A stretch of DNA of 63,092 nt, taken from a virus (Duplodnaviria; Caudoviricetes). Position 1 is the stretch's first letter. Every line of letters begins with the position of its first letter. Both the position numbers and the translations under genes were made by a program. The stretch is from the IMG/VR virus record IMGVR_UViG_3300036852_000204, positions 1-63,092 of that record. One strand, given 5' to 3'. Below, piece by piece: positions 2,621 to 40,897 of the stretch. Below the pieces are notes generated by a model. That model was not told the DNA's origin and searched no databases. It worked only from the letters and a program-made list of their open reading frames with translations.

Positions 2621-2938
2621 TCACCCCGCCTTCCTGAACCCCTCCAGCCACTCGTTCATCTCCACATTACGTGGCTTACGTGGGCCGGACTTGCCTCTGG
2701 TCTTGCGCTTCGTTTCACGCGGAACCTTGCCGGCTCTGAGATCGCGAACGTACCTGTCGAAGGCGTCGGGATCAAAGCGCCAGTGTCCGGACTCACCCTG
2801 CGTCCTGTAGGCACCGGGAATCCCACCGTGCTCCTTGTCTGCCGCCTTCTGGATCACCCATGATCTGGATACGCCAAGGATCTTGGCGGCTTCCTCTGGG
2901 AGATAGGCGGGGCGAATTGATTCAAGGCTTTGTTTCAT
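2621..2938 (-). CDS. xis: Excisionase-like HTH DNA-binding protein
   Basis: YLPEEAAKILGVSRSWV...IPGAYR...WRF MerR-like HTH upstream of int. Confidence 0.75.
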   Translation of the reverse strand: MKQSLESIRPAYLPEEAAKILGVSRSWVIQKAADKEHGGIPGAYRTQGESGHWRFDPDAFDRYVRDLRAGKVPRETKRKTRGKSGPRKPRNVEMNEWLEGFRKAG

Positions 2939-2970
2939 CTGCCTGACCCTTGGAAATAGTCACCCCGGCG
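2921..2970 (+). repeat. Tripartite 50-bp motif, copy 1
   Basis: TTCAAGGC-N24-GAAATAGTCACCCCGGCG. Confidence 0.9.
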
Positions 2971-3188
2971 TTGTCTTCCGCGCGACTGAACGACAGCGCC
3001 ATGCCGCCAATTTGGCCAGCGGCCAAACCAAGCACGAGTGCTGTGCGCAAGACGATGTCCTCGGGCATCGAAAACACCAACCAGCCGGCGCAAAACCCGC
3101 CACCCATTGCAAGGAAGACCGTCGCCATGGCCCGCAAGAATGCGGGAACCGGGACGGGTTTGTAGTTAACGACACCCTCATCTGTCAT
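2922..3188 (-). CDS. Small two-TM membrane protein ending inside motif copy 1
   Basis: Two hydrophobic segments; C-terminus AGVTISKGQADETKP* is encoded by the repeat. Confidence 0.65.
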   Translation of the reverse strand: MTDEGVVNYKPVPVPAFLRAMATVFLAMGGGFCAGWLVFSMPEDIVLRTALVLGLAAGQIGGMALSFSRAEDNAGVTISKGQADETKP

Positions 3189-3373
3189 GCTGGCGCCCCT
3201 CCGGCTGGAGGCTCAGGTAATGGCATCCAGTGTGTTGGCTCCGCATCAAACGAGACACCGTCGCAAAGCCAGCCGCGCCCGTTGTCGTAGCCAACCCGCA
3301 TTTCCGATGTGCCGGCCCAACACAGAAGAATGTCCCGACCGGCTGGAGCGGTCTTGATGGGCTGCCACGTCAT
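3185..3373 (-). CDS. DUF551-like protein
   Basis: MTWQPIKTAP...PTHWMPLPEPP. Confidence 0.8.
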   Translation of the reverse strand: MTWQPIKTAPAGRDILLCWAGTSEMRVGYDNGRGWLCDGVSFDAEPTHWMPLPEPPAGGAPA

Positions 3374-3408
3374 TCCACGTCCTCCCCGATCTTCACGACG
3401 CGCCGAGG

Positions 3409-3672
3409 TCATCCGGGTAGCCTTTTTTCCTCGCCGCACTTCAGGCACCTGCCGACGATACCGCCCTCCGGATGGCGCGCACCCTGCCAATCGTGCTCGC
3501 ACTCTTCATCCGTTGGTTGATCCTCTACGGCGATTGTTTCAAGACCGATCAAGGCGGCATCCTTGCCAACGAGCGTCGCCGCCCTCTGGCGTGCATTTTT
3601 CTCGCTGAAGAATGCCGCAACGCGCTCGATCTTTCCCGTCTCGTAGCGCTTGTAGACAACCCACATCTTCAT
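3409..3672 (-). CDS. Hypothetical protein with C-terminal CxH...CxxC
   Basis: Coupled to neighbours; CEHDW...RCLKCGE. Confidence 0.6.
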   Translation of the reverse strand: MKMWVVYKRYETGKIERVAAFFSEKNARQRAATLVGKDAALIGLETIAVEDQPTDEECEHDWQGARHPEGGIVGRCLKCGEEKRLPG

Positions 3673-4052
3673 GAATCCAACTCCTCTGCCTTGACGTACC
3701 TCTTGGCTCGCCAATCGAACACGTACCCCTCTGGGGGCTTCCTGAAGCCTTGCTTCCGGACGATGCCGTAGTGCTTGTCACGGACGCGTTTGCCTTTGCT
3801 GTTCTCAGTGATGTCGGTTTTTGTCTTAACGTCGTGGCAGGCTTCGTGCGCCGGCAGGACATTGGTTGGACTGTCGTCATCACTCAGAACGCGGCGAATG
3901 GTGTGCTCGGCGTCCCATTTCTCCCGCGCAGGGTCGATCTGCCCTTTGCAGATGTGACAGGTGAGCATGATCCGGCCGGTGACCGGATGAATCCACTTAT
4001 GTGCATCGAAGCACTCTCTTCTGACCTTCGTAGAGTTGGGACGGGAAGACAT
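3669..4052 (-). CDS. HNH-type endonuclease
   Basis: CHICK...WDAEH...NVLPAHEACHDVKT. Confidence 0.75.
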   Translation of the reverse strand: MSSRPNSTKVRRECFDAHKWIHPVTGRIMLTCHICKGQIDPAREKWDAEHTIRRVLSDDDSPTNVLPAHEACHDVKTKTDITENSKGKRVRDKHYGIVRKQGFRKPPEGYVFDWRAKRYVKAEELDS

Positions 4053-4054
4053 GA

Positions 4055-4104
4055 TTCAAGGCTTCGTTGCAGTTGACGGATTGTTGGAGATAGTCACCCC
4101 GGCG
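4055..4104 (+). repeat. Tripartite motif copy 2 (left IR of cassette A)
   Basis: TTCAAGGC-N24-GAGATAGTCACCCCGGCG. Confidence 0.92.
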
Positions 4105-4328
4105 TCTCCTCGTTTCATCAGGAGAATGTAACTGTCCATGCAGTCGCTAATGATCTCAAACAGCGTCTCGCGGTCTGGCTCACCGGTCGCGAGCGTCTCC
4201 ATGTAGCCGAGCGTGTTTGCAATCGCGGTGTAGATGATTGCCGTGTGGTGACCCGCGCACACGCTCATGATTTTCATCTGAAGTTCGTCGGCTTCTATTG
4301 CGCCGTTCGTCAGGTCCATCGGCATCAT
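4056..4328 (-). CDS. Hypothetical protein, cargo of cassette A
   Basis: AAGG RBS, ATG 12 nt inside copy 3; ends AGVTISNNPSTATKP* within copy 2. Confidence 0.65.
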   Translation of the reverse strand: MMPMDLTNGAIEADELQMKIMSVCAGHHTAIIYTAIANTLGYMETLATGEPDRETLFEIISDCMDSYILLMKRGDAGVTISNNPSTATKP

Positions 4329-4340
4329 CCTTGTTCTAAG

Positions 4341-4391
4341 CGCCGGGGTGACTATCTCGATTGGTCCGGCATGCAATGCGCACGCCTTGAT
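4341..4391 (-). repeat. Tripartite motif copy 3 (right IR of cassette A)
   Basis: CGCCGGGGTGACTATCTC-N25-GCCTTGAT; 18-mer is the perfect inverse of copy 2. Confidence 0.92.
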
Positions 4392-4505
4392 TCAAAATGG
4401 TGGTTCCACATCGAACTTCTTCTGTTTCCGGTCTCTCCGGTTGAGTTCGTAAATTATGCCAAGGGCGATGATGAGAAGGGCTAGGCCGATGATGATGGGT
4501 TCCAT
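4392..4505 (-). CDS. Small single-TM peptide
   Basis: MEPIIIGLALLIIALGIIYEL...; stop abuts motif copy 3. Confidence 0.55.
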   Translation of the reverse strand: MEPIIIGLALLIIALGIIYELNRRDRKQKKFDVEPPF

Positions 4506-4510
4506 GGCGG

Positions 4511-4948
4511 CTATGCTGCTTCTGCTTTCAGTTGATCGATAGGCCTTGTGTGGCCGTCCGTGAGAATTTCTGCCGCCTCCAAGAGCGCATGGAATTTGTC
4601 CGATGGCAAAGCGGCCCTGATCATGTCGATCACAGCGCGGTCTTTGGTGGCGTGGGCGCGCTGCTTTTCGATGCCGGCGAGACGCCCCTGCCTGTTCTGG
4701 CATTCGTCGCGATACAGCTTAGACCACTTGAGAGCGGCCTTGGCACGTGGAAGCCAGTCTAGCGGCTTGGCTGCGTTTTCCGTGGGATACGCCACCGCTT
4801 CGTGAAGATCGATTTGCAGTTCAATGTCGATGATCTTCTCTGACAGCGCATACTTCAACTCCATGAGGTCATCGACGCCCTTGCAGAGCGCGAAGTCTGG
4901 CCGGTCAATGTCGATGGTCGTGCCAGACGGCAAAGTAAAGTTGGGCAT
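4511..4948 (-). CDS. Hypothetical protein
   Basis: ORF coupled to upstream gene. Confidence 0.65.
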   Translation of the reverse strand: MPNFTLPSGTTIDIDRPDFALCKGVDDLMELKYALSEKIIDIELQIDLHEAVAYPTENAAKPLDWLPRAKAALKWSKLYRDECQNRQGRLAGIEKQRAHATKDRAVIDMIRAALPSDKFHALLEAAEILTDGHTRPIDQLKAEAA

Positions 4949-5433
4949 CACGCCGCTTCCTCTCGTAGCAACTGGTCCGCCCTTACCCCTAGTGCAGACT
5001 CGATTTCCGTCTCGATGGCCTCTCGGATCGGGCCGAACGCTTTTTGATCGAGCGTTGACCACGAGATCGACCGCGGCCTGAAGACCGCAATCGCGTCTCC
5101 ATGTACGCGAGTGAACGCGTAACTTCCCTCCGCAAGAGCCGCCTTAACTGCAGCTTCGACGGCGAGCGCAACCAGCTTGAACGCAACATCACGCTTCTCC
5201 TTGGGGAATAACTCGATGTCTTCAACGAAAATTGGAGTGGAGTCGTAGTGGCCTGCGCGACAGGTCAACCAAGCCCGAAGCTGGTCGACGGAGGCCGGCT
5301 GAAATTCGTGGGCCTCGGGCCACTGGTCGAACGCCTTCCCGATCATCCCGAACAGGCGCCTATGGTCGGCAGCGCTGCGGCCCTTGGTGAGCATCGAACC
5401 GCAATGCGGGCAAGAACGCTCGTGCCGTGTCAC
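4948..5433 (-). CDS. NinB/DUF1367-like recombination-associated protein
   Basis: RSAADHRRLFG...LRAWL...PRSISW...F pattern, next to RecT. Confidence 0.6.
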   Translation of the reverse strand: MTRHERSCPHCGSMLTKGRSAADHRRLFGMIGKAFDQWPEAHEFQPASVDQLRAWLTCRAGHYDSTPIFVEDIELFPKEKRDVAFKLVALAVEAAVKAALAEGSYAFTRVHGDAIAVFRPRSISWSTLDQKAFGPIREAIETEIESALGVRADQLLREEAA

Positions 5434-5649
5434 TTCTTCCTCCCGATCACGAAGGGCCGGACCCATTCCATATTCAGCTTCAGTTCGACGGAAATGTCCT
5501 CGTAGCCCCAGCCCTTGGCGGCCAGACGGTTGATCTCAGCAATGATGCCGGTCGTTGGAGCTTCCGTGGCTTTCATGGGGTGGTGATCCTTTAAGCCCTC
5601 GGCTTCCGAATTTGCCGTATGGGGACCGATGTTGCGTGAGGCGCATGGC

Positions 5650-6588
5650 TCACTCCGCTGCCTGAACGGCTTCGGCTGTTACTTTCTCCAACTCCTTCTT
5701 GAGCGCGAGCGCGCCGTCCTTGTCGCGTGCCCAATACTCGTTGAGGCCATGCCTGTTGCGCTCGCGCCAGAGCAGCACGACGGACGGCTCATCCGAGTGT
5801 TTCTTGATGAACTCCAACACACGGTCGCCGAACTTGCCGATGGGAACTGGCGTCAACGCCGCAGTCGGTTCCCACGATACGAGGATGGCATTCGAGCCGC
5901 CGACCGCCGCAAGCCGGCGCTCCGTCTCAACCGTTTCGATGATCTCAGTGGCGCTCAGTTCCAGCGTCTTGCCGGCGTCAAGGTCGCCGTCCACGTAGGA
6001 GCCCGCCGTCTCATTTGGCCAGCCCTTGCGGATAGCATCGGCCTCCACGCACTTTGCCAGCATGGTTTCCGGCATCGTGATCCAGTTGGTCTTTTTTGGG
6101 TCGAGCTGAAACTTGCCGCTCGGGCGGCGCTTGCCGTCTTCGCCGTTCTCCCAAATCTCCTTGATGGGAGCGCGCTCTTCCCACTTGAGGCGCGACACGC
6201 AAGGGAACCACTCACCGTGCGCGAAGCGATAGACTGCCACCTCGCAATCAACGATGCCCTTGGGGTTGAGCGGCCCAATCGCCTCCGGGTCGTATGTAAA
6301 GCGGGGCGGCTTGTCGTCTGGGCGGTAGTCGCGGGAGCGTGCGGCTATCTTGCGATAGAGGCCGATGCCCAGCACCGGAACCACGCGGCGCGTGGGCTTG
6401 TCGGCGTCGAACACAAAGAAGTAAATGTCCCGCGTGAACGGGTTGGCGCCGTACAGCTCGCACCACTCGATAGCCTCATCCACTTCTGGTCCGCGCAACT
6501 CCTTGCCGACCGTCTTGGTAAACAGCGACAACCGGCGCGGGTCGCTGCGCGAAAGGCCGCCGCTCTTAGCTAGAACGAGATTTGGCAT
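5650..6588 (-). CDS. recT: RecT/Red-beta-like single-strand annealing protein
   Basis: GANPFTRDIYF, IGLYRKIA, W..MPETMLAKCVEADAIRKGWP motifs. Confidence 0.88.
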   Translation of the reverse strand: MPNLVLAKSGGLSRSDPRRLSLFTKTVGKELRGPEVDEAIEWCELYGANPFTRDIYFFVFDADKPTRRVVPVLGIGLYRKIAARSRDYRPDDKPPRFTYDPEAIGPLNPKGIVDCEVAVYRFAHGEWFPCVSRLKWEERAPIKEIWENGEDGKRRPSGKFQLDPKKTNWITMPETMLAKCVEADAIRKGWPNETAGSYVDGDLDAGKTLELSATEIIETVETERRLAAVGGSNAILVSWEPTAALTPVPIGKFGDRVLEFIKKHSDEPSVVLLWRERNRHGLNEYWARDKDGALALKKELEKVTAEAVQAAE

Positions 6589-6593
6589 CGTAC

Positions 6594-7103
6594 TCACTCC
6601 CACCTGACTTGAAGGGTTTCGCCACCGTTGGAAAGCTGAGCGCCCGGTATCGCATCGCCGCCCTTGAGCGCATCCAATAGAGCCCGTTTGTCCAGCTTCG
6701 GGTCTGAAGGCTTCCAGAACATGCTTGGAATGTCGGCTTCCTCGACAACGACCACGCTGGGCGGTGTGCGCTTGCGCGTGATGGTGCCAACGTCGGTTTC
6801 GAACTTCGGCAAGCCGGCAAGCTCCATGGCCAGCAAGATCGCCTCGCGCAAGCTCCCCTGCTGGCCAGCAAGGCGTTCTCGCCTGCTCTTGAGCCTGTCG
6901 ATCATGTCGTCAATGCCGACGCCCATGGCGCGAATTTCAGCCAGCCGCACTAGGCCCGCGCGGATCGCCTCTTGGATGTTGGTCTCGCCCTCGACCATGT
7001 CCATCTTGGCCTGGTCGTCGTCGGCCAGGATGTCGCGATAGGTTGCAAGGAGAACCTTGGCGGCCTCAGTTTCCTTGTGCAGGGCGTGTGCCGGCTCTGA
7101 CAT
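6594..7103 (-). CDS. Siphovirus Gp157-family protein
   Basis: Coiled coil then PPSVVVVEEADIP...KLDKRALLDALK.G..IPGAQL. Confidence 0.85.
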   Translation of the reverse strand: MSEPAHALHKETEAAKVLLATYRDILADDDQAKMDMVEGETNIQEAIRAGLVRLAEIRAMGVGIDDMIDRLKSRRERLAGQQGSLREAILLAMELAGLPKFETDVGTITRKRTPPSVVVVEEADIPSMFWKPSDPKLDKRALLDALKGGDAIPGAQLSNGGETLQVRWE

Positions 7104-7109
7104 GACTGG

Positions 7110-7301
7110 CTACTCCTTGACTTGTTTCGGTGGCTTCGGCAGTGGCAACCAGTGGGTAGGCTTACGTGGATGCCCCACCGGATGATGATCAACGCGGATC
7201 ATCTCGGGCTGTACGCTCTTCTGCCAACCCGTCACCGTCTCCGGGTAGAACAGGATCAGCAGCTTTCCTGTCGGCGCAGTTTCGATGGGCTGCCATTCCA
7301 T
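7110..7301 (-). CDS. DUF551-like protein
   Basis: MEWQPIETAP...PTHWLPLPKPP. Confidence 0.85.
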   Translation of the reverse strand: MEWQPIETAPTGKLLILFYPETVTGWQKSVQPEMIRVDHHPVGHPRKPTHWLPLPKPPKQVKE

Positions 7302-7304
7302 CGC

Positions 7305-8392
7305 TCAAAACTCCGTCCCTGAGTTCTCCGGCAGATCGACCGCCATCAGAACCTCGCGCAGATGCTGGATCGCTGCATCCGCGCTCTCGTTATCCCGTAT
7401 CAAGGCCAAGCCGTTGGTGATCAGCTCCTTGCCCTGCTGGATTTTCAGAAGGCGGAACTGTTCTTCGCGTTCGGCGCGTTCCTTCGGGGTGCGGGCGTTG
7501 AGGATGGAGATCGAGCCTTGCAGGTCAGCCATGAGGTAGGGCCTCGACAGGTTGACGATGCAGTCCTTCGCCATCGCATCGATCCTCGCCTTGCTCTCTG
7601 GCGTCTTTGGCTCCTGGCGCTCGATGGATGTCACAGGACCACGCATAAAGGTGACGACGTTGCTCATGGGCGTGAGACCTTCTCGACAGGAGCGCCGTTC
7701 GAATACTCAACGATCTTGGTGTTGATGCAGGCGATCATCTCGCGTGCCGCCCACTCGACACCCGCATAGAACTCAGCCGTTTGCGGTATCGTCTTTCGGC
7801 CAGGATCGATCATGTCGCACGCAAAGCGGTAGGCGACGCGCAGGCCATCTTCGTAAGTGGCGCTCATTGCACGGTCTCCGTCTCATGGGCGGTCTTTTCG
7901 ACCGGCGCGAACACTTCCAACTCTCCAATCTCAGCCAACTCGTCTTTGGAGAATTGCGACACGAAGTGGTGCGCTTCCTCTGGGCTGTCGGCCTTGACCT
8001 CAACCTCGCCGTCGATGGAGAAGTGGACCTTGTAGGTGATCATGGGCTTGCCTCCGCACGTTTGCGCCGCCTGTAATCTCGCTGCCAGCGCCGTTCCTTC
8101 GCGCAAAAGGCTGGATTGCGGGCTCGCTTCTGCCTCACCCATTCTGCGTGGTAGCCGGGCGGGGTTGCGCGAGTGACCCTGACGTATTGAAGCGAGCAGC
8201 CAACCTCTTCGGCGATAGCAGCGACGGACCAACCAAGGGCCAGAAACCCGCGAATGCGCTCCTTTTTGGTCATCGGTGCAGCACTCCATAAAGAGCCACG
8301 GTCAAGGCCACGGACCCGAAAGTCAGCAAGAGGCTCATCGCTAGCCAGAAGGCGACGGGTCGGATGCCGTGTTGATTGATGTCGTCGGTCAT
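7305..8392 (-). other. Run of coupled small early ORFs (7305-7667, 7664-7867, 7864-8043, 8040-8273 HTH-like, 8270-8392 TM peptide)
   Basis: ATGA-type stop/start overlaps; IAEEVGCSLQYVR HTH in 8040-8273. Confidence 0.65.
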
Positions 8393-8394
8393 GG

Positions 8395-8445
8395 TTCACG
8401 GCTTCGTTGGTTGATGACGCGCACTTGGAGATAGTCACCCCGGCC
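8395..8445 (+). repeat. Tripartite motif copy 4 (left IR of cassette B)
   Basis: TTCACGGC-N25-GAGATAGTCACCCCGGCC. Confidence 0.92.
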
Positions 8446-8783
8446 TAGTACGAAGTGCTTCCGTCCGGTCCCGGTGGGCGCTCCATGTAGTGCGTGACGT
8501 ATTCTGCCCGCAGTTCAAGTTCCTCCATCTTCAGAATGTGGAACCACCTGCCGCACGGCTTTCTGTAGGCGTCGGTAATCCGCCACGCGTCTGACATTCC
8601 GAACGATGAAGGCGAGGCGCCCACGCTTAGCCAGAGGTCCACGCGGTCAAGTTGCGAACGCTCAGCGTCGAATTCCCTGATCGATTTCCAAGCCCCCATG
8701 TTCTTCCGTGATTTGGTGGCTTCGCCGGCTTCCCTGGCCCTTTCTTCCCAAGGCCTCTCCTGGTCGTCCATTACGCTGCCCAT
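8445..8783 (-). CDS. Hypothetical (divergent DUF551-like) protein, cargo of cassette B
   Basis: AGGAG/GAGG RBS; WKSI...VTHYMERPPGP; stop abuts copy 4. Confidence 0.7.
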   Translation of the reverse strand: MGSVMDDQERPWEERAREAGEATKSRKNMGAWKSIREFDAERSQLDRVDLWLSVGASPSSFGMSDAWRITDAYRKPCGRWFHILKMEELELRAEYVTHYMERPPGPDGSTSY

Positions 8784-8807
8784 CTTCCTCGCTCCTATTC
8801 ACCATTT

Positions 8808-8858
8808 GGCCGGGGTGACTATCTCTGCTGGTCCGGCAAAATCTTCGCTGGCCTTGAA
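8808..8858 (-). repeat. Tripartite motif copy 5 (right IR of cassette B)
   Basis: GGCCGGGGTGACTATCTC-N25-GCCTTGAA; 18-mer is the perfect inverse of copy 4. Confidence 0.92.
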
Positions 8859-8995
8859 TTCAATCTGGAACCGGGAGTACCCGGCAGCGTTTGGAGAGAA
8901 GCCATTCACCTACAAACGCCACCGGGTTCCCCCCGCATCACCTGACGGACCCTCGGACGGACGACCCCGCGCGCCCAACCGTCAGGCAAACTGGT

Positions 8996-9244
8996 TCAAG
9001 CGCTGATGCGCTCTTCATTCTTGCTGCTGACGGTGTGGATCTTCCGATCCGCAGGCCAGTCGATCTCCTGGCAAACATCAGCAAAGAGTTCGTGGATCGC
9101 ATCGCAGTGGTGGGCGATGGCATCGATCTTGGTCTGATCTCTGAGGCTGTAGGCGTCGGCCCAGCGCTTGGTGAGCAGCGCTATGAGGTCGTCTCTGCCG
9201 ATGGCGATGGCGGACTCGGCGTCTGGGTGGGACTTGGGTTGCAT
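8996..9244 (-). CDS. First gene of PL operon, hypothetical
   Basis: GGAGAGG RBS, ATG at 9244. Confidence 0.65.
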   Translation of the reverse strand: MQPKSHPDAESAIAIGRDDLIALLTKRWADAYSLRDQTKIDAIAHHCDAIHELFADVCQEIDWPADRKIHTVSSKNEERISA

Positions 9245-9340
9245 TAGCCTCTCCCGTGGAATTTCGTGTCGCTGAACCTGCACCGTTGATTGCCACTAGG
9301 GCGGTTGCGTTGGGGTTCGGTGCGGCTCAGCGACGATTGG

Positions 9341-9390
9341 ACAGTACAAAACGTACAGCGCGTCGTCAAGTACATTTTGTACAGTTGTAC
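9341..9390 (-). promoter_or_regulatory. PL promoter with OL operators
   Basis: Minus strand TTGACG-N17-TACTGT; GTAC-N5-GTAC at 9344-9356 and 9370-9382. Confidence 0.8.
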
Positions 9391-9430
9391 GGGGTGCGCA
9401 AGTTTTTGTGGAAAAGTGTGGCGCGGTTGC

Positions 9431-10097
9431 CTAGTTGGACCGGCGGTAGAAGGCGGCCATCACGCCGACGATGAAATCGTCCGTCGTTTCTTTGGTCGCG
9501 AAGTCCGGATTGAGCGGCACAAGCGCAATGCGCGAGCCGTGGTCGTTCTCGGCAACAATGCGCAACTTTCGGATCATCGCCTTCTTGCCGTCACGCGCCA
9601 GAACCATATTACCGGGCTGCGCTTTGCGGTCGGGATCAACGATCACGGTATCGCCCGGATAAAGGGAGTACGGCGACCCGCCAGGGTCAACCATGCTGTC
9701 GTCCTGTACCTCAAGGGCGAAGGCATCGACAGACAAGTTTTCTCCTTCCGGCACCACAACAAATCCCCGCGCTTCGGCACTTAGAAGCGTTGCTCGAAAT
9801 GTATCAGCACTGCTGATGGCCGTCCAACGCACGATCGGAATCTGGCGCAGGCCACTTCCGCTTTTCGCTGTCAGTGCGCCGGGGCTTTTTTGCTCCGCGG
9901 CCTGTCAGTAACCAGTCGACACTCACGCGATACGCCCTTGCGTACTTTACTGCGGCTTGGCGACTCGGGGGCCGCTGCCCGTTCTCGTTGGACCTGTAGG
10001 TATTCTCGTTCCAACCAAATGCCCTCGCCGCATCCGTGGCCGTTTTGTAGCCGGCTTCTTTGCGCGCTTCCTGCAGTCTGTCTGCGATCTCTTTCAT
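9431..10097 (-). pseudogene. cI: CI-like repressor (XRE HTH plus S24 domain) split by a +1 frameshift
   Basis: HTH RLQEARKEAG...VSVDWLLTG in one frame; IPIV...AFALEVQDDSM...PGDTVIVDP...LVPLNPDF in +1 frame; A6 run (T6 on +) at 9886-9891. Confidence 0.85.
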
Positions 10098-10106
10098 AGC
10101 CGCTAC

Positions 10107-10163
10107 GTACAGGCTTGTACAGTACGGAGGGCGTTGACAAACGCGCTGTACGTGTTGTACCGT
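10107..10163 (+). promoter_or_regulatory. PR promoter with OR operators
   Basis: TTGACA (10134)...TACCGT; GTAC-N5/6-GTAC at 10107-10120 and 10148-10160; nearly identical to PL. Confidence 0.8.
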
Positions 10164-10194
10164 TGCGCGAAATGAACTGCGCGGAGAGGCATCC

Positions 10195-10437
10195 TTGCAG
10201 ACCTTTCGAGACCTGATCGCGCGCTGGCCAACTGTCGCTGAATTCGGGCGGGATATTGGGGTTGAGTACCAGGCCGCCCGCAAGATGCACGAACGGGACA
10301 GCATCCGCGACGTGCATTGGACGGCCGTTGTGGCGGCGGCCCGTAAGCGTGGCATCCGCGTCACAGTGGAGGCGCTTGCTGCGATGAAGTCCCGCGGGGG
10401 AAACGAAGGCCGGGGCGGCGGTCGCGTAGCCGCCTGA
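10195..10437 (+). CDS. cro: Cro-like regulator
   Basis: Divergent from cI; GGAGAGG RBS, TTG start; WPTVAEFGRDIGV...AARKM..RDSI...HW. Confidence 0.8.
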   Translation: MQTFRDLIARWPTVAEFGRDIGVEYQAARKMHERDSIRDVHWTAVVAAARKRGIRVTVEALAAMKSRGGNEGRGGGRVAA

Positions 10438-11310
10438 GTTAGTACCCAGTCCCACTACGCGTCACCCCTCTACGCTTACGAATGTGGCAAAGTTGTGTAG
10501 TCAATTAACCACGTTGCCGCGCTGTGCACAAGTGAAATGCTCGCTTCCGTACAAACACTTACGTGACGAGTCCTCTAGCTAACCTGTGCGTTTCTTGGCG
10601 TTTGTGGACGGCGGGTCCGGTTTTGCTGCCCTACAGCAAGATGTGGCCTTCGCGATTGCCCTGCATCTCCAAGCCGGGCCTGCCTCCCACAGATGCCGCA
10701 AGGCACACAGTAAAGCGCTGCTGTTGGGGTTCATCGCCCATAGGTGGCGCAGGCCGAAGGTCACCGGCCCAGGTAGCTCGGGTGATGCTGGGCGAAGCGG
10801 GCTGGCGGACGCGGCAAGTTCAGGGTTCAGCGTGTTCGAGCGCCGGTCGGCTTACGTCAAGCGAGGTCTAAAGCGCGGGCGTCCCGGTCGCCCACCTCGG
10901 GCCGCTGACCCCTGCCAAGCTAGTTTAGTGCGGTAGCGTTCTGCGGATCACCCGCGCCGTACCCAGGTAGGTCGAAGGGACGACTGAACTGGCTCTGTGG
11001 CGTGGCTCCTGACCAGCAATAGTCGTGGGCTTTCGAGCGTCACGTGAGCGGGTGAAGGCCTCGGCCGAGGCTGACGCTCTTGGTCCGCAGAATCCTGCCG
11101 CAGTTTTCGTTGCGTCACGCGTCTCACTAGAAAATTTGGGGGATTTGCCGTGCGCAATCGTCGCTACGATGCCGACCTATTCCTGCGTGAGCGCTTCCAT
11201 GCGCTCCGCCCGTCCATCAATCAGATATCGGAACAGCCTGGCGAAATCATGACGCGCCAGCACCCATCAGCTTGTAGCGCTGATGCGGGGCCTGCAAGTC
11301 AGCGGCCCCG

Positions 11311-11376
11311 GAACCCTTCTCGGGTTCTTTCCTCCCTAGACTCGGGCGCTGGGCTCACGCCTGGCGCCCCTCTTTC
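11311..11376 (+). ncRNA. MmgR/suhB (alpha-r8)-like small RNA
   Basis: Hairpin GAACCC-TTCTC-GGGTTC, 10-mer TTTCCTCCCT, AGACT, GC-rich terminator-like hairpin and CTCTTT. Confidence 0.7.
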
Positions 11377-11393
11377 GGGGGAGGGCGAGTAAA

Positions 11394-11912
11394 ATGGAAA
11401 AGGGCTCAACCTGGTCCGGCCCAAAACGCGAGCGCATGTACGCTCTGTGGATCGGTGGCTGCAGCGCCGCCACCGTTGCGCGCATTCTCAACAATGAGTT
11501 CGGTTCCGCACACACGCGCAACTCCATCATCGGCCAAATGAACCGGCACTACCCGGATGCGCCGAGCCACAAAATCCACGAGAACAAGGCTCGCAAACGC
11601 AAGCCGCGGCCCCGCCCGACGCGCGTACCCCTATCGCCGCTGCAGGCCATTATGGCGCAGAAGGCCCCGATGCCGCCGCGTTCGGAGACGGATGTTGCGC
11701 GCGTGTCCTTTGCGGACCTAGAGAACGGCAAGCACTGTAAGTTCATCCCCGGCAATCCAGGCGACGATTTTCGCCTCGACAAACCGATATACTGCGGCAT
11801 GCCGCCCGTGCCCGGAACGCACTATTGCGAGCCGCACCTTGTCCGCTGCCACTCTCCGCCTGAGCTGAGAATCCGCGTGCGCGTCTCCGACAAGACCAAG
11901 GAGTTCGCGTGA
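11394..11912 (+). CDS. gcrA: GcrA-family cell-cycle regulator
   Basis: W...R...LW..G.SA..VA...TRNSIIG HTH; C-terminal CKFIPG...YCG.P..PG..YCEPH. Confidence 0.88.
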   Translation: MEKGSTWSGPKRERMYALWIGGCSAATVARILNNEFGSAHTRNSIIGQMNRHYPDAPSHKIHENKARKRKPRPRPTRVPLSPLQAIMAQKAPMPPRSETDVARVSFADLENGKHCKFIPGNPGDDFRLDKPIYCGMPPVPGTHYCEPHLVRCHSPPELRIRVRVSDKTKEFA

Positions 11913-12175
11913 CCAAATCCACCAAAGCCGATCAGGTCCGCGCATGGCTCAATGGCAGCGACCTTAACTCGCGAGAGATCGCCGAGGCGGTCGAATGCCA
12001 TCAAGGGTTCGTTCTGGCGATCAAGCAGCGGATGCTGCACCCAGAACGGGAGCGCAAGCGGAACCGCGATCGCAACGCCGCGCGTTGGCAGAACCCAGAG
12101 TGCCGCAAGAAGGCGGCATCATGGAATAGCCGTCGGCGAAAGCGAGCGATCGAGGATACCCACGTCAATGGATGA
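11909..12175 (+). CDS. Small HTH protein
   Basis: SREIAEAVECHQGFV. Confidence 0.6.
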   Translation: MTKSTKADQVRAWLNGSDLNSREIAEAVECHQGFVLAIKQRMLHPERERKRNRDRNAARWQNPECRKKAASWNSRRRKRAIEDTHVNG

Positions 12176-12316
12176 CCTCCGCACGATCCTGATGGCTGCT
12201 TCCTTCGGCTTACTCGTAGCTGTCGGAGCTATTTATTCCACCGGCTATGGCGGAAAGGTTGCTGGATTTGAGATCGGGCCTTCGGTGCCTTGGCTACGGG
12301 TGGCCGCACACTAGCC

Positions 12317-13303
12317 ATGGAAAACCGGAAGACCAGATTCGAGTTGGCGAAGTCCCTTTGTGTGCTTGCCGTGCTTGTCGGCGTTGCGGCTGCCGCCATC
12401 CAACTCGCCATCGACATTAGGCAGGGTGTGACAGCTGACATGACGGACCATGAGCGCCTTATCCAGATTGGGCAGATGTCCCTGATCACGGTGTTTGTCG
12501 TGATCCTGGGGGCGATCGCCGGCACGTGGGTCAGCAACGGTCACTGGAAGTGGGCAGCATGCCTCTACGCCGTAGCCAGCGTCTGCATGGCGGTCACAGC
12601 GTCGAACGGCATGGACTTCCTCGCCAACAAGACGGTTGCCCGCACGCAGGCACAGATCAAGAAAGCCACGGCAGAGCGCGACATCACCGACATCAAAAAC
12701 AAGCTCACCCTGGATGAGCGCAAGGAAAAGCAGGAAAACCTCTGGCGAACCTACCTTTCCGCAAGGGGTAGCGAGAAGGACAAGGTTCTTTCCGAGATCA
12801 AGGCCGCCACGCAGGAGGCTGTAGACCTGAAATCAGACGTGGATGTCGTGCAATTGGGTGTCGGCGGTTCGATCAGCTACCACTTCGGGTGGCGCCCGGA
12901 GGCTATCCAGGAAGCCAGGGCCATCGCCATACCGATCGTCACCATGGTCTTGAAGGCGTTGCTGATTTCCATCGGCTTCGGCTGCTGGCCGAACACAGCA
13001 GCGAAGCAATGGGAAACCTCGCCGCCAACACGGCTTGCCGTCGCTCATTTCCAGGAAAGCCCCCAGAAACTTTCTAAGGATGACGCGCGCAAGGACATCA
13101 TTTCCATGATCCACGCCGGGGCCAGTATCCGCTCGGGGCGAGAGCTATCGGAAAGGTGGGGCGTAGGCGAGGGCACAGTCAGCAAATGGCTGGGTGATTT
13201 TCGCAGGGAAGGGCTGATCAAGCGTCAACCAAACGGCAACGCACGGGGGGTCATCGCGGCTCCGCATGTGAACGGCAATGGGCGCGTGGCGGGTACGGCC
13301 TGA
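12317..13303 (+). CDS. Multi-TM/coiled-coil protein with C-terminal HTH
   Basis: Four hydrophobic segments; SGRELSERWGVGEGTVSKWL. Confidence 0.75.
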   Translation: MENRKTRFELAKSLCVLAVLVGVAAAAIQLAIDIRQGVTADMTDHERLIQIGQMSLITVFVVILGAIAGTWVSNGHWKWAACLYAVASVCMAVTASNGMDFLANKTVARTQAQIKKATAERDITDIKNKLTLDERKEKQENLWRTYLSARGSEKDKVLSEIKAATQEAVDLKSDVDVVQLGVGGSISYHFGWRPEAIQEARAIAIPIVTMVLKALLISIGFGCWPNTAAKQWETSPPTRLAVAHFQESPQKLSKDDARKDIISMIHAGASIRSGRELSERWGVGEGTVSKWLGDFRREGLIKRQPNGNARGVIAAPHVNGNGRVAGTA

Positions 13304-13313
13304 AAAGCAGTAA

Positions 13314-13335
13314 GCCCGCCGGATCAGGGCGGGCA
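13314..13335. terminator. GC-rich hairpin, possible terminator
   Basis: GCCCGCC-GGATCAG-GGCGGGC after stop codon. Confidence 0.45.
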
Positions 13336-13577
13336 CTTGGGTGGGCGTCTCTTGATTTTATCCGCTCTCGAACCGCTCGCAACGGGGAAAGAGCAACGCA
13401 CGAAGGAAAATGAACAATGCACTTATACCCTAGAAATCCACTGAGTGTCAACAGCAACCCCTCGGTGTTCGACACGCTTGTCAAGCGCGCCGTTATCGCC
13501 GCTTACGTGTGGGGCCTGCTGTCCGTCGACACGACCCAGCATCTCGTCAACCGCTTCCAACTGTGGAGCGCGTGAGA

Positions 13578-14524
13578 TGAGCACGACCACAGCAACCAGC
13601 GTCACCGCACTGAATGCCGCCGCTGAGGCGAACGTCACCACAGCCATCCTGATGCTCATCAAGGAGGCGCTGATCACCGCGATTGCGGATCGGCGTCTCG
13701 AAAGGGGACACCTTCGGGTTCTGGCTGCCATCGCCACCGTCATGAAGGGCAGCGCCAAGGCTTGGCCAAGTCGGGCGTATCTTGCTGAACTTAGCGGGCT
13801 CTCTCTCGCATCCGTTTCCAACAGCCTGCACGAGCTGCGCGCGTGGGGCTACTTGATCGCCGACAAGGAGACGGTCGAGGAGGCCAGTAACCGCCGTCTG
13901 ACGGTCTACACCTTCGGCAATATCGACCACGACACCATCCGCAAGGAAATCACGTCCTTCGTCCAGAAAGCCCGCGAGGCCCGTGATCCTGCGAAGTTCA
14001 CCGCCCACGGTGATGATAGTTCACCGCCCACGGTGAAGAAGGAGTTCACCGCCCACGGTGATGGTTCACCGCCCACGGTGAAGGAATCCAAGAAAAGTTC
14101 ACCGCAGACGGTGCCCCGTATAGATAATAATAATATACCCCCAAACGCTGGCGAGGGTGACGATACAACCCCCTCGCGCAAGCGCGAGGCAACCACCAGG
14201 ACTAAATTAAGGGAAGATTGGATTCCTGCCCCAGAGACCGTCGCATGGGTCAGGGAGAACTACGTTGCGAGCGATCAGCAGATCGCGAACGAAGCCCAGA
14301 AGTTTCGCGACTACCACGTCAGCAAGGGCTCCAAGATGGCCGACTGGCGTGCGGCTTGGCGCACATGGTGGGGCAATGGGTGGCACAAGTGTCCACGCCG
14401 CATGGGCGCCCACGCTCAGATGGCGATTTCAGCGGCCGGCCAGACAGCAACAGACCAAGCCCTGCACGACGCCTTTGAGCGCGCCCGCCTCATGGACGAG
14501 GAGGACGCCAAATGCCGACGTTAG
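13578..14524 (+). CDS. Replication initiator (N-terminal wHTH, internal iterons, DnaT-like C-terminus)
   Basis: AWPSRAYLAELSGLS..SV...L.EL..WGYL; LREDWIP...KFRDYH...DWRAAWRTW. Confidence 0.85.
13997..14137 (+). repeat. Iterons and AT-rich tract (putative replication origin)
   Basis: TTCACCGCCCACGGTGA at 13997, 14020, 14045, 14065, degenerate at 14098; then TAGATAATAATAATATA. Confidence 0.85.
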
Positions 14525-19771: not shown

Positions 19772-19821
19772 TTCAAGGCGAGACCATGCGATGACGGACG
19801 GTCGAGAAAGTCACCCCGGCG
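19772..19821 (+). repeat. Tripartite motif copy 6
   Basis: TTCAAGGC-N24-GAGAAAGTCACCCCGGCG, then RBS and ATG at 19839. Confidence 0.88.
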
Positions 19822-19930
19822 TTGGGATGGAGAGAAATATGAGGTGGTGCGATGTGTTTGAGACCCTGGTCGGGATGGCCATCTTCGCCGCGCTTGGGTT
19901 TGTCGCCTATGCCGTCTACCTGGCTTTCCA

Positions 19931-28810: not shown

Positions 28811-28811
28811 C

Positions 28812-29624: not shown

Positions 29625-30530
29625 ATGGCAGACAACGCAAATGCAACGGCTGGAGATGGTTCGGTCGTCGTGGCTGCCGATGACATCGGCGGCGTCCACT
29701 ACCAGCGGGTCAAGCTTGCGCTGGGGGCCGATGGTGCTGGCGTCGATGCGGTGGCCGGGGCCGGGGCCGTAAGCACCGCCGTGCAGCGCGTCACGCTGGC
29801 CAGCGACGATCCCGTCACGACATCCGTGCAGATCATGGATGATTGGGACGAAACCGATCGCGCCAAGGTCAACGTCATTGTCGGCCAGGCGGGCATTGCT
29901 GCCGGCACGGGCGTAGATGGGGTCACGGTGCCGCGCGTGTCGCTTGCCACCGACGTGCCATTGCCAGCCGGCACCAACGGCATCGGCAAGCTGACCGCCA
30001 ACTCGGGCGTAGACATTGGCGACGTTGATGTCACCTCGATTTCGGCTGGTGAAAACCACTTGGGCGAGGTCGGCGGCAAGACGGCGGTGGTTGCTGTCAC
30101 GCTCAGCACAGACACATCAGCTTATGCCTCGGGCGATCTGATCGCCGACACGCAGCAGATTGACACCTTCTTCCGCAAGGCGGATGGCACTGGCGTCATC
30201 AATTCCATCAACATCATCGATGAGGATGCCCAGGGCGTTGCCCTTTACATCATCTTCATGAGCACCAGCACCAGCCTTGGCACTGAGAACAGCGCACCGA
30301 ACATCTCCGACGCCAACCTGACGGCGGGCTTCCAAGGCATCGTGTCGGTCGGGACTTCAGATTACGTTACGATCAGCGGCGCCAAGGTTGCCACCATCCG
30401 CAACATCGGCCTTCCCGTCAAAGCTGTCTCCGGCACGGATGACATCTACATCGCCGTGCTGAACTCTACGGGCACGCCGACCTTCACGGCATCCGGCTTA
30501 GAGATGCGTATCGGCGTGTTGTTGGATTAG
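29625..30530 (+). CDS. Putative virion fibre/decoration protein
   Basis: Same N-terminal block, different C-terminal domain. Confidence 0.7.
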   Translation: MADNANATAGDGSVVVAADDIGGVHYQRVKLALGADGAGVDAVAGAGAVSTAVQRVTLASDDPVTTSVQIMDDWDETDRAKVNVIVGQAGIAAGTGVDGVTVPRVSLATDVPLPAGTNGIGKLTANSGVDIGDVDVTSISAGENHLGEVGGKTAVVAVTLSTDTSAYASGDLIADTQQIDTFFRKADGTGVINSINIIDEDAQGVALYIIFMSTSTSLGTENSAPNISDANLTAGFQGIVSVGTSDYVTISGAKVATIRNIGLPVKAVSGTDDIYIAVLNSTGTPTFTASGLEMRIGVLLD

Positions 30531-30534
30531 GCCG

Positions 30535-34487: not shown

Positions 34488-34490
34488 GCC

Positions 34491-34871: not shown

Positions 34872-34897
34872 TGGCCATCAAGTCACTCAGAGGCTAA

Positions 34898-36088: not shown

Positions 36089-36112
36089 TCCCAATCAGGG
36101 GACCAAACCAAA

Positions 36113-37087: not shown

Positions 37088-37102
37088 GAAGGAGATACGC
37101 AC

Positions 37103-37594: not shown

Positions 37595-37652
37595 CAGGCA
37601 CAAGAGCCGGGCGACGTTGTGTCGCCCGGCTGCTCCAGTTACGCGAGGTCAA

Positions 37653-39014: not shown

Positions 39015-39757
39015 GGAGCATTTGGGTAGGCTACGACCCCAGGGAAAGCGAAGCGTTTGCGGTGTGTCGGCATTCGCTGCGCCGCCGTTCCGGCAACGTG
39101 CCCATCCATGCGGTTGTGCTGGGTGATCTGAGGGCTGCCGGCCTCTACTCCCGTCCCACATCCAAGCGCGACAGCAAGCTATGGGATGACATCTCGGATG
39201 CGCCGATGTCGACTGAGTTTGCAATCAGCCGGTTTCTGGTGCCGCACCTCGCTAAGCGCGGTTGGGCACTGTTCATGGACTGCGACATCCTTGCCCGCAC
39301 GGATGTCAACGAACTGTTCGACATGGCCGACCCTCGCTATGCCATGATGTGCGTAAAGCACCCGAACTACATCCCCAAAGAGGCCGTCAAGATGGATGGC
39401 CAGGAGCAGACCAGATATCTGCGCAAGAACTGGTCGTCGGTGATGCTGTTCAACTGCGAGCATCCGTGGAACCAAAACCTGACCGTCGATCTGATCAACA
39501 GCGTACCTGGGCGTGATCTGCACCGTTTTTGCTGGTTGCAGAATGATCTGATCGGCGATCTGCCGATGAGCTGGAACTGGCTGGTTGGAACGTCGGACCC
39601 GGAGATTGTGCCAGATCTGGTGCACTTCACGTCCGGCGGGCCGTGGTTCGAAGGCTATCGCAACGTACCTTATGCCGACGAGTGGCTCGCCGAGCGCGGC
39701 GCTTGGTTGCGCGACACAACCGAGCGCGCCGCAGATATAACTGAGAGGGCAGCATAG
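39011..39757 (+). CDS. GT-A fold glycosyltransferase (GT8/CDI-like)
   Basis: VGYDPRE, STEFAISRFLVP, FMDCD (DxD), RKNWSSVMLFN, HFTSGGPWF. Confidence 0.88.
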   Translation: MRSIWVGYDPRESEAFAVCRHSLRRRSGNVPIHAVVLGDLRAAGLYSRPTSKRDSKLWDDISDAPMSTEFAISRFLVPHLAKRGWALFMDCDILARTDVNELFDMADPRYAMMCVKHPNYIPKEAVKMDGQEQTRYLRKNWSSVMLFNCEHPWNQNLTVDLINSVPGRDLHRFCWLQNDLIGDLPMSWNWLVGTSDPEIVPDLVHFTSGGPWFEGYRNVPYADEWLAERGAWLRDTTERAADITERAA

Positions 39758-40477
39758 ATGGGCAATCTCTACACCGACCCCCTTTTGCAAGGCAGGCTCG
39801 GCATCCGCGAAAGCGACAATGCGCTGCTATTATCGGGTGGGGCGGCGGTCATACCCAATGCGGTGGAGGTGACCCTGCCAGCAACCGCCGGCACACTGGC
39901 TGGGTTGGCGGCGACTAATGCGTTCACGGGCGCCAATTCATTCGCTACGGCCGTTACCCCGACGGGCGGCGTCGCCGCAGCTGGTGGGTTCAGCGCGACG
40001 CCGCGCAATGTGCACACGGGAGGCAACCCTGCGTCGCTTTCGACCGACGGCACCAACCTCGATATCGTCGTTACCGAACTGTACGTTGCCGAGGTATTCA
40101 TCCCCTGCAACATGACAGTCACTGGAGTGGCCGTGTTCTGGGGCGCTGCCACCAACGGCAATGCCAAAGTGATGCTGTTTGATTCGGCCGGTGCGCGAGT
40201 GGCGATCTCCGCTTCTACCGATGTGTCTGGGTTCACGGCCGACTCCTACGGCACACGCATCCCCTTCACGGCGACCTATGCCGCCAAGGGTCCGGCCACC
40301 TACTACGTCGGCGTGATCTGCGACGACAACACCAACGACATCAACACGCACATTCTCGGCAACTTCGGTGCCGGCAAGATTGAATCCCTCGTTTACGCCA
40401 CCGAGGCAGGCTACGCGACCATAACCGTTCCTACCACCTTCACGACGGGCCTCGGGCCAATCGCCACCCTCTACTGA
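39758..40477 (+). CDS. Thr/Ala-rich putative fibre protein
   Basis: VTLPATAGTLAGL...NAFTGANSF fibre-like repeat. Confidence 0.7.
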   Translation: MGNLYTDPLLQGRLGIRESDNALLLSGGAAVIPNAVEVTLPATAGTLAGLAATNAFTGANSFATAVTPTGGVAAAGGFSATPRNVHTGGNPASLSTDGTNLDIVVTELYVAEVFIPCNMTVTGVAVFWGAATNGNAKVMLFDSAGARVAISASTDVSGFTADSYGTRIPFTATYAAKGPATYYVGVICDDNTNDINTHILGNFGAGKIESLVYATEAGYATITVPTTFTTGLGPIATLY

Positions 40478-40480
40478 GCC

Positions 40481-40897
40481 ATGCCCGATCAATCACTGAT
40501 CGAGCTGCTGAGCGGGTACGACGTAACCGACGGAACCGGCGGTCTGGTTGCTCGACTGAAGGTTCACCCAGACAACAGTGTCGGGAACGTCATGGTGATG
40601 GACCATTCGCTTCGTCGCCAAGGCATCGCCACGGCGCTTTACGACTATGCCGCCAAGGATAGAGGCGTTCCACGCCTAGAGGCCGGCAGCTATCAGACAG
40701 CGGAGGGAGTGGCACTTCGCACTGCTTACGACCGCCGGGGTGACTATCTCGGCGGCGAGGCAAAAGACGCGGCTTCCTTGAATAAAGCCGCCGCCGTAAA
40801 GGAACTCTACGCCAAGCAAGGAATGCCAGTTTCTGGGGAAGACAGAGAGAATAAGCGTTCCCGCCTCAATGGCTTTGGCGGCCCAGTCCCCAACTAA
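40481..40897 (+). CDS. GNAT-like acetyltransferase running through motif copy 7
   Basis: V....LRRQGIATALYD motif A; QTAEG. Confidence 0.65.
   Translation: MPDQSLIELLSGYDVTDGTGGLVARLKVHPDNSVGNVMVMDHSLRRQGIATALYDYAAKDRGVPRLEAGSYQTAEGVALRTAYDRRGDYLGGEAKDAASLNKAAAVKELYAKQGMPVSGEDRENKRSRLNGFGGPVPN
40733..40782 (-). repeat. Tripartite motif copy 7
   Basis: CGCCGGGGTGACTATCTC-N24-TCCTTGAA. Confidence 0.88.

Follow-up and report, generated by a model that had tools for sequence, protein, structure and literature searches.

A three-box motif of about 56 bp at gene junctions of a temperate phage genome and of other mobile DNA from soil and groundwater

Junction repeats of phages and the motif of the window

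Phage genomes are mosaic, yet the sequences that join their modules are rarely visible. Among the described systems, the closest in function to the element treated here appear to be the promoter early stem-loop (PeSL) repeats of T4-like phages, and the closest in its association with gene starts and stops appear to be the start-associated sequences (SAS) and extended start-associated sequences (ESAS) of the Cluster K mycobacteriophages. We analysed the whole IMG/VR virus record IMGVR_UViG_3300036852_000204 (63,092 bp, rated complete; hereafter the window, W), which has the layout of a lambdoid temperate phage. In the window and in a set of metagenome contigs, one sharply defined motif of about 56 bp marks joints at several levels: between genes, around single accessory genes, at a gene start (contigs L019 and L064) and in the domain linker of a giant protein. 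We tentatively read the motif as a junction element in the DNA that is recognised by a protein and where exchange of accessory modules takes place, a reading to which we give a little less than an even chance and for which we infer the protein reader, the effect on expression and the recombination route.

PeSLs are direct repeats that recombine into circles. They are described as conserved repeats of about 50 bp between the small open reading frames (ORFs) of hyperplastic regions and as composite terminator/promoter sequences, and insertions, deletions and replacements among T4-like phages break at them (PMC4122927; PMC2839356). The motif of the window is likewise found among the small ORFs of variable regions, and it is where breaks occur when related phages differ; however, it carries no promoter (by scan of copies 1-5) and no stem-loop, it forms inverted pairs, and its host group and sequence are unrelated to those of the PeSLs.

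SAS of Cluster K are 13 bp long, almost always in one orientation and 3-7 bp from a start codon, and ESAS are 17-bp inverted repeats with a 4-13 bp spacer (PMC3203893). Both occur in non-structural regions at gene starts, include the core of the Shine-Dalgarno sequence (SD), sometimes overlap the upstream stop codon and are kept across subclusters before different gene families; there, their function is called unknown and a DNA-binding protein is suspected (PMC3203893). By contrast, the present motif is 56 bp long, has three boxes, occurs in both orientations and is also found at gene ends. Its sequence, its architecture of three boxes, the inverted pairing of its copies and its host group set it apart from PeSLs and SAS/ESAS alike.

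Anatomy and distribution of the motif

The 17-mer of box A, GCCGGGGTGACTWTYTC, has seven zero-mismatch matches in the window (Table 1), whereas shuffled sequences gave a mean of 0.04 and a maximum of one. Every copy is complete, with GKCA 8-9 nt after box A and CCKTGA 12-13 nt further on, so that all seven copies of the earlier note were recovered at their places and with the spacing it had given. A hidden Markov model (HMM) built from 25 copies found the same seven sites at 44.9-50.5 bits, the next best match in the window reaching 4.9 bits. When each copy is read along the transcription of its own region, 1, 2, 4 and 7 are forward (F, box A first) and 3, 5 and 6 are reverse (R).

The 25 non-redundant copies (seven from the window and 18 from ten metagenome contigs) give a non-palindromic consensus of three boxes, aaCGCCGGGGTGACTaTcTC, N5-6, GnnCGKCA, N12-13, kCCTTGAAycaa. 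Twelve positions of box A are invariant or nearly so, and the stretches between the boxes are free. The start of box B follows that of box A by 19 nt (11 copies) or 20 nt (14 copies), and the start of box C follows that of box B by 18 nt (19 copies) or 17 nt (five copies); the distance from A to C is 37 (15 copies) or 38 (nine copies) and never 36. Each of the two spacings (19-20 and 17-18 nt) amounts to roughly two helical turns. A forward copy holds TGA stops in two frames, one within GGGGTGA and one within CCTTGAA.

The boxes are retained in whichever of three reading frames they are translated, on either strand and also in intergenic DNA, and at copy 1 they persist under two overlapping genes. 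The inter-box stretches follow the A>T bias of the local sense strand: on the motif strand they contain 25% A and 17% T in F copies, and 15% A and 28% T in R copies (chi-square p 0.006). Copies that share an orientation resemble one another more than opposite ones do (43% vs 37%; permutation p 0.0002). The HMM scores of the metagenome loci are bimodal, either at least 40 bits or at most 8.9 bits, and because the scores split cleanly both there and in the window, the copies are intact or absent, and none is decayed. Since the inter-box stretches are strand-adapted and half-decayed copies are lacking, the evidence points to long-established sites that selection maintains at the level of the DNA, not to fresh insertions. 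On the sequence evidence, selection on the motif acts at the level of DNA, and because it does so in both orientations and three frames, a reader of double-stranded DNA is argued for. A conserved peptide was ruled out as the explanation, since the boxes persist in non-coding DNA as well as on both strands and in three different frames. A CcrM/GcrA site was dropped as GANTC occurs in box C or its flank in only nine of the 25 copies.

The earlier note had named binding sites for a phage regulator as its alternative, and the tight box spacing and the DNA-level selection would fit a protein reader of that kind as well. In its plain form the alternative holds that the motif is solely an operator or punctuation site (a roadblock, activator or insulator), analogous to stoperators or SAS/ESAS, and that its association with breakpoints is incidental; we regard it as rather unlikely. 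Three boxes at fixed spacing, conserved at the DNA level over coding constraints, agree with it, as do the concentration of copies in early operons (five of the seven window copies lie in the leftward one), the coupling of R copies to gene starts and F copies to gene ends, and a single copy just behind the immunity region of the viral contig L019. It is opposed by the occurrence of both orientations within one operon, by copies inside coding sequence and a domain linker, by the same boxes in contigs with no detectable protein in common with the window over the stretches compared, and by breakpoints that fall repeatedly at the motif edge. Stoperators often lie at gene boundaries and are oriented one way with respect to transcription. 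In the Cluster A phages they are asymmetric dispersed repeats at which the immunity repressor binds and stops elongation (PMC9283540). They measure 13-14 bp, in contrast to the 56 bp of the motif, which occurs in both orientations (15 F and nine R copies, with one, in L169, undecided), and the operators of the window's own repressor appear to be a different repeat of TGTAC type. If the motif were only regulatory, it would be a new counterpart, in probably alphaproteobacterial phages, of the unexplained SAS/ESAS repeats of mycobacteriophages.

The tripartite pattern matched 13 stretches of metagenome contigs (L numbers denote the contigs and loci compared). Before any counts were made, L171 was dropped as a chance match on a contig of 68.7% GC (6.9-8.9 bits), L166 as identical to L161 over 9,225 bp, and L165 as 98.7% identical to L163 around the pair. 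The 18 copies retained lie in ten distinct contigs of 56-63% GC, which have next to no further DNA in common with the window or among themselves; most have no detectable protein in common with the window in the stretches compared. The carriers of the motif, the window included, are temperate phages that have not been cultivated and further mobile DNA of soil and groundwater origin. The copies of L163 are in a tail/lysis region, and that of L161 lies in a single open frame (1212-14411, -) of at least 4,399 aa that runs off the examined stretch and appears to encode a polyvalent multi-domain protein with domains recurring in other long metagenome proteins. A homologue of the L161 protein, P0003, reads VTING in place of the motif-coded VTISG.

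The tripartite pattern had no match in 185,579 GTDB species genomes; this, together with the lack of a palindrome, sets the motif apart from repetitive extragenic palindromic sequences and bacterial interspersed mosaic elements. In IMG/VR it had just two matches, both judged to be chance, in isolated phages none, and in plasmids only two chance matches of 19-20 nt. The exact 17-mer was found in 21 stretches of IMG/VR and in at least 120 stretches of GTDB genomes, always as single matches; they consist of box A only, and by our own estimate their number is about that expected by chance. No copy was found at the examined loci of the RecT-type relatives L149-L157, and five whole relative records gave only chance matches with three mismatches, which a reversed control equalled. 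Neither the HNH protein nor the HTH_23 protein had homologues in IMG/VR.

Among 154 other loci searched with the HMM, 88 match at E<=0.01, nearly all of them by box A only. Those in L019 (28 bits) and L064 (20.6 bits) extend over all of the motif and belong to a variant family in which boxes A and C are kept and the middle differs. The variant occurs once in each contig and encodes the N-terminus MDQG..AE[IK]VTPA; the L019 copy is the one just behind the immunity region. In two small proteins that are unrelated apart from this (L019 9662-9886, +; L064 3407-3652, +), it accounts for the first 18 codons. The L064 contig was binned as Bryobacteraceae, beyond the presumed alphaproteobacterial host range; the host group of the window, Alphaproteobacteria, is a guess from its GcrA-like gene.

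Gene starts, gene stops and exchange at the motif

Close pairs of copies follow one arrangement: inverted, with box A facing inward, and reading R then F along transcription in eight of eight cases across seven phage contigs. Seven are loaded with differing cargo (cassettes A and B of the window, L162, L167, L168, L170 and L172) and hold one to three ORFs, mostly family-less. The pair of L163, likewise that of L165, is empty, with 12-13 bp between the arms and a whole length of about 120 bp. Eight of the nine R copies have an SD, often TGGAGAATAGGAG, and a start codon 13-23 nt behind them, the ninth belonging to the empty pair, and this SD falls outside the conserved boxes. Going downstream from an R copy, one meets an F copy next in 9/9 cases, eight of these 13-900 bp away (rough chance 0.015). 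As for the F copies, 12 of 15 are placed where the upstream ORF ends, from 7 nt before box A to the TGA of box C, while two others are inside ORFs and one is in the empty pair. At five of the 15, the next start codon falls within the motif itself or no more than about 5 nt past box C; four of these starts have no SD of their own and the fifth, at copy 1, has one between boxes A and B, which fits a hand-over between genes by termination and re-initiation. At least five F copies are solo (window copies 1 and 7, L167 at 1963 and 173, and L161). As read from the contigs themselves, the bracket of R then F is a regular anatomy of these loci.

In the window, the inverted pairs of copies 2/3 and 4/5 each enclose one small gene with an SD and no sigma-70-like promoter by scan, as the earlier note had described. 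The stop codon of a 37-aa transmembrane (TM) peptide gene (4392-4394, TGA) adjoins the outer flank of copy 3, box A is followed by an SD and the ATG (4319) of cargo A, and this ORF runs through copy 2 to the box C TGA (4056-4058), 2 nt before the ATG (4052) of the HNH gene. The cassette A interior (4106-4339) has a GC content of 53.8% vs 60.6% for the genome. Cassette B opens with copy 5, which stands where a non-coding stretch of about 210 nt ends; this stretch is preceded by the first gene of the leftward early operon. After the copy come AATAGGAGCGAGGAAG and the ATG at 8783. The cargo B stop TAG (8445-8447) lies directly before box A of copy 4, and the ATG (8392) of a 40-aa TM peptide is 2 nt behind that copy; a look-alike of this peptide (31% identity) stands behind a forward copy in L170. 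Copy 6 has no forward partner nearby. A 65-aa ORF ends immediately before it (TAG, 19769-19771, then TTCAAGG), and on its other side come GGAGAG and the start codon (ATG, 19839) for a 31-aa TM peptide. The abutting or overlapping of upstream stops by the outer box at copies 3 and 6, and the start codons 2 nt behind copies 2 and 4, are thus as first reported. Copies 1 and 2 are not purely intergenic, because the upstream ORFs are translated across the motif (..AGVTIS..KP) and end at the TGA within CCTTGAA; at copy 1 the tail of ORF 2922-3188 reads ..NAGVTISKGQADETKP, its stop being the TGA in box C. Copy 7 lies, as previously placed, behind the weak GNAT-like part (Pfam E 0.002) of ORF 40481-40897 and is translated in a third frame (..RRGDYLGGEAKDAASLNK..); no homologue of this ORF was found besides itself.

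The genes touching the motif are strikingly often those of tiny single-pass membrane peptides of 31-56 aa, and two such families recur across contigs (Table 1).

A scan of copies 1-5 found no sigma-70-like promoter or intrinsic terminator. Reading the boxes as -35/-10 elements would require spacers of impossible length; promoters of the sigma-32, sigma-54, extracytoplasmic function sigma or phage RNA polymerase kind were considered and dropped. Neither a phage RNA polymerase nor a serine invertase was present among the 50 window proteins scanned against Pfam.

The pairing of complementary arms within one transcription unit also raises the possibility of an RNA device, in which R and F copies pair into a long-range duplex around the cargo and serve as an RNase processing stem or a translational switch. 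The arms are complementary over 12-19 nt of box A, and the forward copy has GGGGUGA, which we take to be SD-like from the 3' end of 16S rRNA, while the reverse copy has its complement. This explanation is nevertheless improbable. Single copies are no more structured than shuffles (Z -1.4 to +2.1 for seven copies), nor are the extended reverse units (Z -1.8 to +2.1 for seven units), and an Rfam search of the whole window (E<=1) found no family at any copy; on these two grounds a structured RNA or ribozyme was ruled out. The model is further weakened because the arms show no compensatory changes: the W/Y positions of box A are identical in only four of eight pairs, and the K of box B differs between the arms in six of eight. 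Solo copies and copies inside ORFs exist in addition. The earlier note had described an innermost base that co-varies within pairs; this is so in the two window pairs only, the other pairs having mostly C in both arms.

The cargo of all seven loaded cassettes points in the sense direction, and its ribosome-binding site (RBS) lies next to the R copy. This weakens the idea of an inverton- or shufflon-type switch, in which a recombinase would flip the gene between the inverted copies and so turn it on or off. Inverted repeats around single genes and a tyrosine recombinase encoded in the window speak for such a switch. Apart from the uniform orientation, however, the motif lacks what recombinase core sites typically have, namely inverted binding arms on either side of a short spacer, inversion between distant copies (e.g., 6 and 7) would break operons, and the contigs of three soil runs show no strand-changing joints, a weak test because contigs hide rare inverted or excised forms. 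We consider the switch very improbable, and the inversion proposed in the earlier note was not borne out.

The exchange proposed there fared better. Homology between contigs often stops at the motif edge. L160 and L168 have only the motif and 40 nt in common (95% over 95 bp), the left break falling at the inner edge of box A, and in window copy 6, L170 and L172 the common part is the motif and RBS only (84-88% over 57-69 bp), with unrelated genes on either side. The window and L167 encode orthologous TM peptides of 37/38 aa (44% identity), each with its stop in the outer flank of an R copy; behind it the window has the 87-aa ORFan of cassette A, whereas L167 has an unrelated 78-aa ORFan and an HTH_23 gene. 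The product of the latter is a homologue (47% identity) of the window protein 8040-8270 with its C-terminus replaced by a motif-coded tail. In L161 the motif is read in frame (KAGVTISGG..) in the linker between two domains of the protein of >4,399 aa, and homologues of these two domains were found separately in other proteins. In motif-less relatives, found via RecT of about 60% identity, there is a 4-nt overlap between the NinB and HNH genes (GTGA in L153, ATGA in L149), while in the window they are separated by about 0.9 kb made up of an extra ORF, the TM-peptide gene and cassette A. Different cargo and an empty site, which the earlier note had proposed to look for in relatives, were both seen between pairs (seven differing cargos, one empty pair, and the window compared with L167). 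As judged from these alignments, mosaic breakpoints lie at the element, cargo differs at a syntenic junction and motif-less relatives keep a tight junction of ancestral type; the swapping of accessory genes is supported by these comparisons (eight of eight pairs with the one arrangement, differing cargo, breaks at the motif edge, the 4-nt overlap).

Under the preferred reading as a protein-read junction element, a conserved sequence-specific protein would read the motif as double-stranded DNA. This reader may be encoded by the host or be widespread, given that the boxes recur unchanged in contigs between which no further homology was detected. An R copy, with the SD 13-23 nt behind it, would open a small accessory cassette, and an F copy would close it with TGA in two frames, often handing over to a start codon inside the copy or 2-5 nt behind box C. 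Recombination at the element between co-resident phages or prophages, proposed because the element is the sole sequence common to otherwise unrelated neighbours, would add, remove or replace the DNA between copies; the phage itself encodes RecT, Gp157 and NinB/Orf. The outcome would be a hyperplastic accessory region on a conserved backbone, functionally similar to that of the PeSLs. If the motif is protein-read, finding its reader would open a way to study how accessory ('moron'-like) genes enter tightly coupled operons while translation stays intact, and could also provide a portable junction with which to engineer phages that infect high-GC soil bacteria.

Several observations weigh against this reading. 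No reader protein was identified, and no protein family recurs beside the motif across the loci compared. The scan mentioned above gave no sign of an expression function at copies 1-5. A single pair of contigs provides the case of one locus with different cargo, and the peptide that links the two has 44% identity over 37 aa. The longest unbroken identity between copies is about 19-21 nt, which is short for general homologous recombination, and the inverted arrangement is not what homology-driven exchange needs, being the natural form for transposon ends. The contigs of the three soil runs, one of which may be the source of the window, match it in the pieces compared and show no joint at any copy, although contigs hide rare forms. 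The protein at 58951 (58915-59571), suggested in the earlier note as a possible partner, could not be linked to the motif because it has no Pfam, PHROG or PDB-sequence match.

The inverted arrangement is central to another explanation, that the inverted copies are the ends of non-autonomous passenger-gene elements, moved by a transposase or recombinase supplied in trans, and that solo copies are remnants. Mobile insertion cassettes (MICs) and miniature transposable elements with inverted repeats (MITEs) are units of this kind, derived from insertion sequences (IS), flanked by inverted repeats and lacking a transposase, some of them with passenger genes. The motif resembles them in its terminal inverted repeats, with box A inward around the cargo (eight close pairs), in passenger genes without a transposase, different in every cassette, and in the empty L163/L165 pair of MITE size. 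Motif units of 57-95 bp that are 84-95% identical between contigs with unrelated flanks, the presence of copies in very different mobile DNA (the L163 tail/lysis region and the giant polyvalent protein of L161) and a tight box spacing that suits an end-binding enzyme are also in keeping with it. Against it, neither window cassette has a target-site duplication, with the flanks read directly and several tip positions tried, and no transposase with matching ends was found: the sole one in the window is of IS1595 type, its flanks are unrelated to the motif, and that region has no similar repeats. There is no cognate IS, the tripartite pattern is absent from the GTDB species genomes, and the 17-mer matches there are about chance by our own arithmetic. 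Solo ends are many, decayed copies are lacking, and because the inter-box stretches are saturated with change and adapted to the local strand bias, any insertions were not recent. We hold this explanation to be unlikely, though credible. The absence of a target duplication and of IS1595-like repeats had been correctly reported before.

A related and equally unlikely reading makes the element the site of a trans-acting recombination enzyme that moves promoterless gene or domain cassettes among soil phages, prophages and mobile DNA, a system that would be phage-borne and distinct from integrons and IS-derived MICs. If this were true, the inverted 56-bp ends would also supply stops, starts and RBSs, so that cargo would be spliced seamlessly into operons and even into polyvalent proteins. 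With integron cassettes the motif shares promoterless single-gene units that have their own RBS inside an operon and a recombination-type site at the 3' end. The attC sites of integrons are imperfect palindromes read as folded single strands, stand in direct orientation and need IntI and attI; the motif, in contrast, has no stable fold (with RNA parameters) and its pairs are inverted. As for the dedicated capture machinery suggested by the earlier note, the missing target duplication, the lack of a candidate enzyme, the several solo copies and the drift of the inter-box stretches to local strand composition do not support it.

Genome context and further observations

The coordinates of the motif copies, cassettes and neighbouring genes are given in Table 1. 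The HNH, NinB/Orf, RecT and Gp157 genes belong to the leftward early operon. The rightward operon contains a GcrA-like gene, a replication initiator with iterons, a primase-helicase, a SNF2 helicase, a DNA methylase and a NusG-like gene. The window also has genes for an IS1595-type transposase and the large terminase subunit, as well as structural genes. No tRNA or tmRNA was found.

Table 1. Motif copies, cassettes and neighbouring genes of the window (F, forward; R, reverse; HTH, helix-turn-helix)
Feature	Coordinates (strand)	Box A 17-mer	HMM score (bits)	Remarks
Integrase (tyrosine recombinase)	560-1741			Match to the general Phage_integrase family; sole tyrosine recombinase found in the window
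Xis-like HTH_17 gene	2621-2938 (-)			ATG at 2938, between box B and box C of copy 1
Copy 1, F	2921..2971 (-)	2953-2969 (-)	48.6	Overlaps end of ORF 2922-3188 and start of Xis-like gene
HNH endonuclease gene	3669-4052 (-)			Directly behind cassette A
Copy 2, F	4055..4105 (-)	4087-4103 (-)	49.8	Closes cassette A
Cargo A, 87-aa ORFan	4056..4319 (-)			Without known family; SD present
Copy 3, R	4340..4391 (+)	4342-4358 (+)	50.5	Opens cassette A
37-aa TM-peptide gene	4392..4505 (-)			Stop adjoins copy 3
NinB/Orf-like recombination mediator	4948-5466 (-)			Backbone flank of the expanded interval holding cassette A
RecT	5650-6603			Leftward early operon
Gp157	6594-7103			Leftward early operon
HTH_23 protein	8040-8270			No PDB match
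40-aa TM-peptide gene	8270..8392 (-)			GC by codon position 0.60/0.40/0.75
Copy 4, F	8395..8446 (-)	8428-8444 (-)	46.6	Closes cassette B; box C variant CCGTGAA
Cargo B, 112-aa ORFan	8445..8783 (-)			Without known family; SD present
Copy 5, R	8807..8858 (+)	8809-8825 (+)	44.9	Opens cassette B
CI-like HTH + S24 repressor	9431-10364 (-)			TGTAC-type operator repeats on both sides
Copy 6, R (rightward transcription)	19772..19822 (-)	19804-19820 (-)	46.1	
Copy 7, F, solo	40732..40782 (+)	40734-40750 (+)	50.1	Inside ORF 40481-40897
Motif-touching genes of the small membrane peptides	4392-4505, 8270-8392, 19839-19934, 2922-3188; L167 1781-1894; L170 249-416, 475-594			First four in the window

The CI-like repressor is encoded in two overlapping frames, the HTH part ending at 9804 and the frame of the S24 peptidase being open from 9904 to 9431. 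A contig of soil run X3 (depth 2.8) misses one base at 9886, which would join the two parts in one frame, and for this reason the split repressor of the window may be a frameshift variant or an assembly error. On either side of the repressor gene lies a TGTAC/GTACA-rich inverted repeat of 23 nt (9341-9363 and 10141-10163, 91% complementary), which probably represents the left and right operators.

The sole Rfam match of the window, at 11306-11384 (+), is to the sRNA family suhB/mmgR (RF00519), with 36.6 bits (under the gathering score of 41) and an E value of 0.0007; it sits just upstream of the GcrA-like gene (11394-11912). Within the HTH_36 replication-initiator gene (13445-14524), four tandem iterons with the core GTTCACCGCCCACGGTGA and a spacing of 20-25 bp occupy positions 13991-14083, and this array is probably the origin of replication. 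The NusG-like protein (21910-22461, +; Pfam NusG E 5e-8) is encoded ahead of the late region, and the gene of its homologue in L162 (447-989, -; 29% identity) begins 22 nt behind a forward motif copy.

The IS1595-family transposase gene (25404-26360, -; DDE_Tnp_IS1595 E 2e-35) precedes the terminase gene directly and lies in a stretch of lower GC content (about 56-57%, 22-26 kb), where no clear terminal repeats were found. Further downstream, a direct repeat of 281 nt with 71% identity (28857-29137 and 29673-29953) links the neighbouring genes 28812-29471 and 29625-30530, which are probably paralogous structural genes.

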